From the NCBI RefSeq assembly GCF_003334335.1, contig NZ_QOWQ01000049.1: 30,887 nucleotides of DNA. One strand, 5' to 3'. Below are positions 6,093-26,994 of the stretch, one piece after another; position 1 is the stretch's first letter, and each line of letters begins with the position of its first letter. The notes beneath the pieces were generated by a model, which saw nothing but the letters and a program-made list of their open reading frames with translations, had not been told where the DNA came from and did not search any database. Origin of the DNA: Escherichia coli. Lineage in GTDB: Bacteria; Pseudomonadota; Gammaproteobacteria; Enterobacterales; Enterobacteriaceae. Both the position numbers and the translations under genes were made by a program.

Positions 6093-6138
6093 GAGTAAAA
6101 ATGACTCGCTACCCGCAGCAGGCGAGTCATTTTTACTC
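6093..6138. promoter_or_regulatory. Enhancer for ZraR: two 17-bp sites GAGTAAAAATGACTCGC / GCGAGTCATTTTTACTC in inverted orientation, each containing a GAGT-N7-ACTC dyad
   Basis: Read directly. It sits between the two divergent sigma54 promoters, the expected position for a bacterial enhancer-binding-protein site. Confidence 0.7.
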
Positions 6139-6658: not shown

Positions 6659-7354
6659 TCAGAACGTTTTCTCGTTGGGTTGCCAGCGACAGAAATCAGA
6701 GTTTGCCACTAACAGTAATTGCGAACCTTCGGGCGCTTCCAGCCATGCCACGCTGACATCAACAGAAGAGCGGCTCTGGCGGCGCTCGATATGCGCTATC
6801 GCCTGCGAATCTAAATCAGGTTTAATGGTTTGCCCTTCGCAGGTGGTCACGGTCTGTTCCATCGCATGCCAGCGCCCCTGGCGCAGCACGACTCTCCCCT
6901 GACGTAAGGCATCGCTAATCTGGCGGATCTGATCAGCACGATAACGGTATAAATCGATTTGGTCGTTAGAAAGCTGCTGCTTTTCCCCATCGGATTCACG
7001 TTGCATAAAGCTCAGATCACCGCGATCGTCAAAACGCGCGCGAATATTCACCGGCGGTTTGCTGTAAACATTGATATTGATGAGCGTGAGGTTATCGCCC
7101 TGCCAGCGATACTCTCGCGTCGTGGTATCGCCACTGCGCCACGGGCTAAACACGGCAAGCAGATGCACATTATCGCCGCTGTCTTTTCGCCAGATGCGTA
7201 CCGCGCCCTGGTCTTCAGCAAATCCACTGGCGGTAAAGGGAGGAAGTGAAGAGTTATGACTACAGGCAGTGAGAAGCAGAGCGCCAGCCAGCATCAATGA
7301 TCGACGCCAGAAAGACAAAAGGGGTGAAACCACCCCTTCGTTAAAACTGTTCAC
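6659..7354 (-). CDS. yjaH: Putative lipoprotein YjaH (DUF1481 family)
   Basis: ORF with lipobox LLLTAC-S. The track ORF starts at a GTG at 7360; a second in-frame GTG at 7354 gives 231 aa and is the start I favour from recalled protein length. Start is uncertain by 2 codons. Confidence 0.75.
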   Translation of the reverse strand: MNSFNEGVVSPLLSFWRRSLMLAGALLLTACSHNSSLPPFTASGFAEDQGAVRIWRKDSGDNVHLLAVFSPWRSGDTTTREYRWQGDNLTLININVYSKPPVNIRARFDDRGDLSFMQRESDGEKQQLSNDQIDLYRYRADQIRQISDALRQGRVVLRQGRWHAMEQTVTTCEGQTIKPDLDSQAIAHIERRQSRSSVDVSVAWLEAPEGSQLLLVANSDFCRWQPNEKTF

Positions 7355-7366
7355 TGCCACGCAATC

Positions 7367-7639
7367 TTACTTAACTGCGTCTTTCAGTGCCTTGCCAGAA
7401 ACAAATGCCGGTACGTTAGCTGCGGCAATTTTGATTTCTTTACCGGTCTGCGGGTTGCGGCCAGTACGCTCAGCGCGGTGGTTCACTTTGAAGGTACCGA
7501 AACCAACCAGTTGTACAGCATCGCCTTCTTTCAGAGACTCAGTAATTGCAGCCAGAGTGGACTCCAGAGCAGCTTTAGCCTGGGTTTTGGACAGTTCTGC
7601 TTTCTCTGCAATTACATCAATCAGTTGAGTCTTGTTCAT
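7367..7639 (-). CDS. hupA: DNA-binding protein HU-alpha
   Basis: 90-aa translation [90 protein letters not shown] is the HU-alpha sequence. Confidence 0.97.
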
Positions 7640-7825
7640 AAGTTATCCTTACAATGTGTTTATCGCTTGCTAAGCATCGAGTGCGACGGAAATGCCAGAA
7701 TAGCACTCTCCTGCATACACGCACCGATAGCCACTTTTTTTCGCCCCCCAAATGTAGACCAGACGGGGGGCGAAAGGGAAGACTCCAGGTACGACAAATC
7801 AGGCGTTAAATCACGTTTTCTGGTC

Positions 7826-8416
7826 TTATTGCTGAAAAATTATACCAATATTGCTCTCACCCGCCTCACGCAGGTCTGCCCTAAGGCCTTTTATCAGCTC
7901 GATATCGCGTTCTTCGCACTCAGCTAAAAGTCGGAATATTTCCCACTGAATGTCCCATTCTTGCTCTACAGCTGGGTTTTCTTTAAGCTCTTCATCGCTC
8001 ATTTCGCGACCAGCCTGAGTCATTTCCAGCATCGCAACGGTCGTGATGGAGGTCTTACTCACTTCCACCGCGTGTTCGAGCGTTTCACCACTCAAACGCG
8101 AATGGACCAGTTCACTTAACGCCACGCAGGCATCGATTGCCGGATAAACGCCGTACAGATCGAAATCGTCGGCTGAAGGAATCGCTTCTTCAAATTTCTC
8201 CAGTTGGCTGTCGAAATTTACTTTTGCGTCTTTAACGGTCAGCGTTTCCCAGATGAGATCGAGAATGCGACGGTAAATTTGCCCATCACCAAAACCGGTT
8301 TGCTGGCAGAACATGGCGTAATTGGGGTACATGCGTTCGCATAAGCAAGCCATGAAAGTGACATGCTGCCAGCTTTCCAGGCGCTCCAGACGCAGATGAA
8401 TTGGGTTTTGTAACAT
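7826..8416 (-). CDS. yjaG: DUF416-family protein YjaG
   Basis: 196-codon ORF, recognisable as the conserved enterobacterial YjaG; sits in the expected position between hupA and nfi. Confidence 0.85.
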   Translation of the reverse strand: MLQNPIHLRLERLESWQHVTFMACLCERMYPNYAMFCQQTGFGDGQIYRRILDLIWETLTVKDAKVNFDSQLEKFEEAIPSADDFDLYGVYPAIDACVALSELVHSRLSGETLEHAVEVSKTSITTVAMLEMTQAGREMSDEELKENPAVEQEWDIQWEIFRLLAECEERDIELIKGLRADLREAGESNIGIIFQQ

Positions 8417-11622: not shown

Positions 11623-11650
11623 GCCCCATTTGCGGGGCTAATTTCTTGTC
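11623..11650 (+). terminator. Intrinsic terminator downstream of rsd
   Basis: 5-bp GC stem GCCCC/GGGGC with ATTTGC loop, followed by the T-rich tract TAATTTCTTGTC. Confidence 0.6.
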
Positions 11651-11735
11651 GGAGTGCCTTAACTGGCTGAGACCGTTTATTCGGGATCCGCGGAACCTGA
11701 TCAGGCTAATACCTGCGAAGGGAACAAGAGTTAAT
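11651..11735 (+). promoter_or_regulatory. TPP riboswitch (THI element) in the thiC leader
   Basis: Contains the conserved thi-box core CTGAGA (11667..11672) and the downstream AACCTGATCAGGCTAATACCTGCGAAGGGAAC segment, about 90 nt upstream of the thiC ATG. Confidence 0.85.
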
Positions 11736-11817
11736 CTGCTATCGCATCGCCCCTGCGGCGATCGTCTCTTGCTTCATCCGTCGTCTGACAAGCCACGTCC
11801 TTAACTTTTTGGAATGA

Positions 11818-17185: not shown

Positions 17186-17439
17186 GACGGAATGTAAGAA
17201 CGTAAATTTATTCCGAGCCGCTACGGAAGATGAAAAACGCAAGGTTGTTGAAAGCGTTGTGTTTTTTTATGGTAGTGCCGTCAGCAGGAATGTTGTCCAG
17301 GGCGAAAAGCTTCTTCCTCGTTTCGCCCTGCCTTTCTTAAAAATTCCGTAATGCAAAGTCTGAAGCCATCGCCTGTTGAGCAATGAAAGAGATCTGATTG
17401 TAAGAGAGTAAATACTCAACTATGATAGAGACGAAAATA

Positions 17440-17601
17440 AGAACACATGTTCTCATCTTCCAGGATGCAGCAGACTGAAGAAATTCAGACATCCCGCAAC
17501 CTGCGATTATCGCAAGGTCAAGGCAAAGTCCGGTAATGGCGTTCTGAATACCAGAGATAATTCTCTGGCGAAACCCACCTTAAGGTGGGTTTTGTTATTT
17601 T
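17440..17601 (+). ncRNA. sroH: Candidate small RNA at the 3' end of the thi transcript region (position matches the sRNA sroH reported between thiH and htrC in E. coli K-12); 5' end not determinable from sequence
   Basis: Two consecutive hairpins (CCAGAGA-TAAT-TCTCTGG at 17551..17568, then AAACCCACC-TTAA-GGTGGGTTT at 17571..17592) followed by TTTTGTTATTTT; the 3' end is well defined. The 5' boundary and the identity are from memory of the K-12 locus. Confidence 0.4.
17571..17601 (+). terminator. Strong intrinsic terminator (9-bp perfect stem, TTAA loop, T-rich tail)
   Basis: AAACCCACC TTAA GGTGGGTTT followed by TGTTATTTT, read directly. It is a good terminator only on the plus strand; on the minus strand the hairpin is followed by CGCC. 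Confidence 0.8.
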
Positions 17602-26920: not shown

Positions 26921-26954
26921 GCGCAAAAAGGCTGGTGACTAAAAAGTCACCAGC
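26921..26954 (-). terminator. rplL-rpoB intergenic attenuator (partial terminator)
   Basis: Perfect 9-bp inverted repeat GCTGGTGAC-TAAAAA-GTCACCAGC (26931..26954) which on the minus strand is followed by CUUUUUGCGCU; lies 41 to 64 nt downstream of the rplL stop. Confidence 0.75.
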
Positions 26955-26994
26955 CATCAGCCTGATTTCTCAGGCTGCAACCGGAAGGGTTGGC

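Follow-up and report, generated by a model that had tools for sequence, protein, structure and literature searches.

An inverted repeat between yjaG and hupA of Escherichia coli overlaps the core elements of the hupAp1 promoter

In the stretch of Escherichia coli DNA analysed here (30,887 nucleotides, referred to as the window), hupA lies downstream of yjaG on the same strand, and the two genes are separated by a spacer of 186 nt (Table 1). The region between positions 7300 and 8420 matches E. coli K-12 MG1655 exactly; there, the inverted repeat that forms the subject of this work occupies coordinates 4,200,145-4,200,181. Of 5,426 complete E. coli genomes, almost all carry the whole spacer at 100% identity, and a 59-nt promoter block is unchanged in 5,358 of these 5,426. 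Because this block is identical in so many genomes, the C and G homopolymer runs that it contains are not phase-variable. Both the 186-nt and the 59-nt query occur in a median of one place per E. coli genome, and a dispersed palindromic repeat of the REP/BIME or ERIC type is ruled out, the inverted repeat being single-copy per genome.

The preliminary description of this DNA reported a hairpin between yjaG and hupA, and its coordinates and sequence proved exact. The repeat search of the window returns two arms of 11 nt (TTTCGCCCCCC and GGGGGGCGAAA) that are 100% complementary and spaced by 15 nt, so that the order on the gene strand is CCC-TTTCGCCCCCC-GTCTGGTCTACATTT-GGGGGGCGAAA-AAAAGTGG. The approximate distances given there, 50 nt past the yjaG stop and 100 nt before the hupA ATG, are also borne out, with measured values of 50 and 99 nt. 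Both genes, and with them the strand that matters, are on the minus strand, a point absent from the preliminary description. The further statement that an A-run follows the stem on both strands is accurate for the minus strand, where the final AAA of the stem extends into an A7 tract (7741-7735), but not for the plus strand, where GGGAAG follows (purine-rich, with no A-run) and a T7 tract precedes the stem.

When folded as single-stranded RNA, the minus (gene) strand reaches -24.8 kcal/mol (z = -3.4), a value equalled by 0 of 200 shuffles, and the plus strand reaches -25.6 kcal/mol (z = -4.1). Perfect 11-bp inverted repeats with a loop of 3-20 nt are observed at 5 loci in the window, compared with 0.13 expected under a first-order Markov model. 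The inverted repeat exceeds the expectation for random sequence, though in real genomes such repeats are not rare. The repeat search did not find a larger second inverted repeat at the hupA promoter, only the two 8-bp pairs listed in Table 1. In the pair whose copies are 55 nt apart, AGACCAGA directly follows the yjaG stop codon and TCTGGTCT spans -19 to -12 of hupAp1; this pairing is probably due to chance, judging by the drift of the upstream (outer) copy in other genera.

Elsewhere in the window, a perfect 15-bp inverted repeat with a 12-nt centre is present at 6095-6136 (GTAAAAATGACTCGC … GCGAGTCATTTTTAC), about 100 nt upstream of the likely start of zraP (MKRNTKIAL…). It is presumably the ZraR enhancer-binding site of the zraP-zraSR intergenic region. 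Matches to Rfam families above the gathering score are included in Table 1.

Table 1. Features of the hupA locus, with promoter coordinates relative to the hupAp1 start site, and Rfam matches elsewhere in the window
Feature	Position in window	Strand	Remarks
hupA CDS (HU-alpha, 90 aa)	7367..7639	minus	
hupA ATG	7637-7639	minus	MG1655 4,200,281
hupA 5' UTR, 105 nt	7640..7744	minus	starts GCGAAAAAAAGUGG; near-invariant across Enterobacteriaceae
8-bp inverted repeat pair	7679-7686/7914-7921		repeat search
3' arm GGGGGGCGAAA	7739..7749	minus	-5 to +6; G-rich discriminator, start site, first transcribed bases
hupAp1 transcription start site	7744	minus	MG1655 4,200,176; within the 3' arm, at the final G of its G-run
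'Loop' GTCTGGTCTACATTT	7750..7764	minus	-20 to -6; holds the -10 hexamer
-10 hexamer TACATT	7751..7756	minus	-12 to -7; C at -13
8-bp inverted repeat pair, 55 nt apart	7756-7763/7819-7826		minus-strand reading TCTGGTCT (7756-7763) / AGACCAGA (7819-7826)
5' arm TTTCGCCCCCC	7765..7775	minus	-31 to -21; last base of the -35 hexamer and upstream half of the spacer; C-run at -26 to -21
Probable -35 hexamer TTCCCT	7775..7780	minus	-36 to -31; 18-bp spacer to the -10 hexamer
yjaG CDS (DUF416)	7826..8416	minus	upstream of hupA, same strand; stop codon 7826-7828
TPP riboswitch	11640-11740	plus	Rfam, above gathering score
sroH sRNA	17433-17593	plus	Rfam, above gathering score
'P26'	26929-26990	minus	Rfam, above gathering score; coincides with an 11-bp inverted repeat at 26930-26955

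The hupAp1 promoter and its start site

Directed 5'RACE has placed a transcription start of hupA at -105 relative to the ATG; it is classed as 'Known', assigned to hupAp1 and placed at distance 0 from the RegulonDB position (Mendoza-Vargas 2009, Table S1, PMC2760140). The placement of hupAp1 used here is based on this one published table and its agreement with RegulonDB. The SMRT-Cappable-seq supplements contain no entry for hupA, and the supplements of Kim 2012 include neither the gene nor the coordinates. A full-text literature search gave no match for yjaG together with hupA, nor for the hupA promoter together with a transcription start.

With the start site placed in this way, the 5' arm of the repeat lies just downstream of a weak, probable -35 hexamer, TTCCCT, and the 15-nt loop carries the -10 hexamer TACATT. 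The 3' arm comprises the G-rich discriminator, the start at the last G and five further transcribed bases, running into the A7 tract. TACATT, with A as its second base and T as its sixth, ends at -7 and is invariant in 35 of 35 aligned sequences. TTCCCT is the probable -35 hexamer; it matches the consensus at 3 of 6 positions in E. coli, many other genera have TTCACA at 5 of 6, and the CTTC of the -35 region is invariant in the alignment. Published predictions for this region include GTCTTCCCT as the sigma-70 -35 box of the -105 start site, and TCTACATTTG as a -10 element of the sigma-38 type with a PATSER score of 5.58 (Mendoza-Vargas 2009, PMC2760140). A consensus promoter scan of the window did not call hupAp1, owing to its weak hexamers (about 7 of 12 consensus positions, as counted here) and 18-bp spacer. 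Among the possibilities raised in the preliminary description was a protein-binding dyad in the hupA promoter region. This proposal identified the right neighbourhood but understated the overlap, as the repeat is the core promoter itself, with the -10 element in the loop and the transcription start site in the 3' arm.

Additional or minor 5' ends of hupA are listed at -52, -45 and -4 (Mendoza-Vargas 2009, Table S1, PMC2760140), and given these starts the promoter architecture may be more complex. The -52 start, represented by three 454 reads in the same study (PMC2760140), is associated with an extended -10 element, TGcTATTCT, at 7691-7705 on the minus strand. The A of TATTCT is confined to Escherichia, TTTTCT being read in every other genus and in one E. 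coli strain, and the internal promoter behind this start may be lineage-specific, judging from the aligned sequences. Upstream of hupAp1, a Fis site has been predicted at TATTGGTATAATTTTTCAGCAATA (7827-7850, minus strand), which corresponds to about -106 to -83 of hupAp1 and falls within the 3' end of yjaG (Mendoza-Vargas 2009). Just downstream of this predicted site, the motif AAAACGTGA (7819-7811) is near-invariant across genera and constitutes a candidate regulator half-site.

Transcript ends and RNA structure

The terminator scan identified no terminator at the inverted repeat nor elsewhere between yjaG and hupA. A canonical hupA terminator was found at 7339-7318, and a Term-seq end at 4,200,605 (about window position 7315) is located at this terminator (Adams et al. 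2021, PMC7815308). The same Term-seq data, obtained under three growth conditions, contain no 3' end in MG1655 4,200,000-4,200,199 on either strand, and the tables attribute no 3' ends to yjaG; one 3' end, at 4,200,389, lies within hupA (Adams et al. 2021, PMC7815308). An intrinsic terminator is rejected, given that the stem is followed by AAAAGTGG on the minus strand and by GGGAAG on the plus strand and that no 3' ends are mapped to it. The earlier judgement that neither strand of the hairpin forms a terminator is therefore upheld, with neither a T-run after the stem nor Term-seq 3' ends at that position. Term-seq was among the checks proposed in the preliminary description, and the published tables, having no 3' end at the hairpin, show within their sensitivity that it is not a non-canonical terminator either.

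A related explanation concerns transcripts reading through from nfi-yjaG, which the RNA hairpin would end, either as a terminator without a U-tract or as a 3' protective stem of the yjaG mRNA, with its overlap with the promoter being incidental. The hairpin is suitably located, 50 nt past the yjaG stop and on the same strand, and there is no alternative terminator-like site between yjaG and hupA; however, it has no T-run, and Term-seq gives no 3' end there in three conditions and none assigned to yjaG. The strong RNA fold of -24.8 kcal/mol would suit such a role in E. coli, but the hairpin is far weaker in most genera, and its 5' arm is unconserved, without compensation. A precedent is provided by the paralogous hupB promoter, which is overlapped by the canonical lon terminator. 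Considering all of these points, a function of the repeat in ending or protecting read-through transcripts is very unlikely.

For the hupA mRNA, the suggestion of a processing or stability element fails, as this mRNA carries only GCGAAA of the repeat. Since transcription starts within the 3' arm, at 7744, the hupA mRNA contains no more than half an arm and is unable to form the hairpin. A cis-regulatory RNA in the hupA 5' UTR is likewise rejected: the 5' arm and the loop are untranscribed from hupAp1, no Rfam family is found and covariation is absent. In a permissive Rfam scan of 7300-8000, the only match was a chance one to mir-4716 (16 bits, where the gathering score is 76; E = 2.7).

The leader of hupA has features of its own. 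Weak 'orphan' Term-seq ends are listed at 4,200,251/253 (window 7667-7669, minus strand), 28-30 nt before the hupA ATG, in two of three conditions (PMC7815308); they could reflect premature termination or processing. The 5' UTR (7640-7744, minus strand) is near-invariant in Enterobacteriaceae, Erwinia, Pantoea and Dickeya, except for a variable patch at about 7701-7688. This patch forms the loop between the complementary sequences GAGTGC (7708-7703) and GCACTC (7684-7679), and together with its flanks it looks like a conserved UTR stem-loop. In Dickeya fangzhongdai (locus L082, about 1919-2042), an insertion of about 125 nt is situated exactly in this variable loop, with the flanking UTR unchanged. 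The inserted sequence (…GAATCCCCGTGAGCTTACTTGAGTAAGTGAATGGGGTGAGCG…) is, by resemblance, a candidate ERIC-type intergenic repeat.

Conservation of the repeat across Enterobacterales

The comparison covered 80 Enterobacteriaceae loci, obtained by a profile search of genome contigs with a YjaG alignment and having YjaG identity of at least 90%. Erwinia, Pantoea and Dickeya were added via exact-protein look-up. In 78 of the 80 loci, hupA follows yjaG at a nearly constant distance of 186 +/- 1 nt. A near-invariant block extends from the loop GTCTGGTCTACATTT to the hupA ATG, and the sequence upstream of it is far more variable. Conservation of the individual segments was expressed as mean identity to E. 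coli over 34 distinct Enterobacterales sequences. Conservation is highest in the loop (0.99, with 13 of 15 columns invariant), followed by the outer part of the 3' arm, CGAAA (0.96), the C-run (0.93) and the G-run (0.92), while the outer part of the 5' arm, TTTCG, reaches only 0.64. As seen in the alignment, this pattern is the reverse of that of a structural hairpin and as a promoter would predict, with the -10 element and the transcribed bases fixed and the spacer near the -35 hexamer drifting.

The pairing itself is poorly maintained. All 11 Watson-Crick pairs are kept in 2 of the 34 distinct sequences, and the C6/G6 core is perfect in 11 and mismatched in the remaining 23. No covariation was detected: 79.9% of cells are paired, compared with 79.6% in column shuffles, and 200 of 500 shuffles are at least as good. 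Substitutions in both arms are uncompensated. TTTCG is replaced by TTCCG, ATCTG, ATTGG or ATTAG with the opposite CGAAA unchanged, and GGGGGG is replaced by GGAGGG, GGGAGG, GGAAGG or GTGGGG with the opposite CCCCCC unchanged; GGAGGG or GGGAGG facing an intact CCCCCC is found in Klebsiella, Raoultella, Kluyvera and Salmonella diarizonae. Stability was compared by single-strand folding of 47 nt with the hairpin at their centre. The RNA form folds with -24.4 kcal/mol in E. coli, with a median of -14.3 kcal/mol elsewhere and a weakest value of -7.6 kcal/mol; as DNA, the corresponding values are -14.0, -5.95 and, in some genera, -2.0 kcal/mol.

A conserved RNA hairpin is rejected by the covariation count, the segment conservation and the start site inside the arm. 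The comparison points to no detectable selection on dyad symmetry. The preliminary description tied the standing of the hairpin to its conservation outside this strain, and on this point sequence and structure have to be distinguished: the sequence block is highly conserved, and the pairing is not.

The conservation data also bear on the possibility that the repeat is an operator for a dimeric repressor reading two GC-rich half-sites around the -10 element. The dyad has the -10 region at its centre, where repressors typically bind, but 26 bp separate the centres of its half-sites. Both GC runs are conserved, whereas of the symmetric outer bases TTTCG/CGAAA just one side is. No known operator has, to our knowledge, half-sites resembling homopolymeric C6/G6. 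No candidate factor was found; the regulators named in the sources are HU and the upstream predicted Fis site. An operator of this kind is extremely improbable.

Interpretation and comparison with known systems

The reading that best accounts for these observations is that the repeat is promoter DNA, with the GC runs acting as spacer and discriminator/start region, and that it is irrelevant as a structure of the hupA mRNA (estimated probability of about 0.85). Each GC run would owe its conservation chiefly to its own role in the promoter, one as discriminator and the other as spacer, and the perfect 11-bp dyad of Escherichia would be largely a lineage-specific extension.

The inverted repeat is already known, having been described in the 1990s, and the promoter is included in RegulonDB. 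According to a later summary (PMC3969353) of Kohno et al. 1994 (J Biochem 115:1113), the hupA promoter is overlapped by an inverted repeat with cruciform potential; in this account, HU may promote the cruciform structure, and autoregulation may proceed via steric hindrance. The 'large' inverted repeat named in the summary is most likely the 11-bp repeat, since this is the sole sizeable repeat overlapping the promoter.

This proposal from the literature (Kohno et al. 1994, via PMC3969353) leads to a functional cruciform or hairpin switch, in which the dyad itself is selected. Negative supercoiling and bound HU would extrude the repeat as a cruciform, the -10 element would leave the duplex and hupA would be turned off. 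In its favour, the perfect repeat (11 of 11 bp, -31 to +6) overlaps the promoter and brackets the -10 element exactly; however, a stem of 11 bp around 15 unpaired nt does not lend itself to extrusion as a cruciform. HU prefers cruciform and junction DNA. hupA has been reported as activated by DNA relaxation, a responsiveness in keeping with the switch, and the conservation of the spacer C-run is unusual for spacer DNA. The comparative data, in turn, count against selection of the dyad. Pairing across Enterobacterales is at the level of column shuffles, the arms are unequally constrained (64% for the outer 5' arm versus 96% for the outer 3' arm, and 11 pairs in only 2 of 34), and the C6/G6 core is mismatched in 23 of 34 distinct sequences. 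The median stability of the DNA hairpin is -5.95 kcal/mol, falling to -2.0 kcal/mol in some genera, while every other promoter base is invariant. A cruciform switch is consequently regarded as unlikely, although with some real chance of being correct.

A narrower version concerns the C6/G6 core, as opposed to the 11-bp Escherichia stem. The C-run is 93% conserved in a spacer that is usually free to vary, which standard promoter recognition does not explain; it could stem from a genuine requirement for pairing with the G-run. On unwinding, the two runs would pair within one strand, C in the spacer with G in the discriminator. The core might then serve as an Enterobacterales-wide DNA switch read by HU, coupling hupA to the HU level and to superhelicity, with the frequent single mismatches tuning the set-point in each genus instead of marking a lack of function. 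The probability of such a switch is judged to be low.

Under the preferred reading, that of promoter DNA, the main consequence is a correction of annotation: the hairpin should not be labelled as an RNA structure, a terminator or a processing site. The cruciform model of HU autoregulation is still cited; the comparative data give no support for dyad selection, and the model merits a direct re-test. As a discovery, the repeat carries little weight, since it belongs to a textbook E. coli K-12 gene and was discussed about 30 years ago.

Among known systems, intrinsic terminators resemble the hupA repeat in having a GC-rich stem soon after a stop codon, but the hupA repeat differs in having no U-tract on either strand, a loop of 15 nt and no 3' ends. 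The paralogue hupB, encoding HU-beta, offers a closer parallel: the GC-rich terminal hairpin of the upstream gene lies over promoter elements. The lon terminator, at positions 369-412 of L085 (the MG1655 lon-hupB spacer), is canonical, with 18-nt arms, an 8-nt loop and a T7 tail, and it overlaps the -35 box GGCTTGCCA predicted for a hupB promoter (Mendoza-Vargas 2009, PMC2760140). The two cases differ in that the lon hairpin overlaps the -35 box, whereas the hupA repeat brackets the -10 element and the start site. At each of the two HU genes, then, the promoter is covered by a GC-rich dyad, but the dyads are of differing kinds.

Promoters with a G+C-rich discriminator, such as rrnB P1, tyrT and fis, form a further group for comparison, as hupA, judged by its sequence, is likewise G/C-rich between the -10 element and +1. 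The promoters of rrnB P1, tyrT and fis are stringently controlled or supercoiling-sensitive, and hupA is growth-phase-regulated and belongs to the nucleoid/translation class. fis is opposite to hupA with respect to the reported activation of the latter by DNA relaxation. Finally, E. coli hupAp1, as treated by Kohno et al. (1990, J Mol Biol 213:27; 1994), is the same locus, identical to MG1655 and with the same start site. What the present analysis adds to that work is the comparative result that, beyond Escherichia and a small number of Enterobacter-like lineages, the dyad symmetry is not kept.
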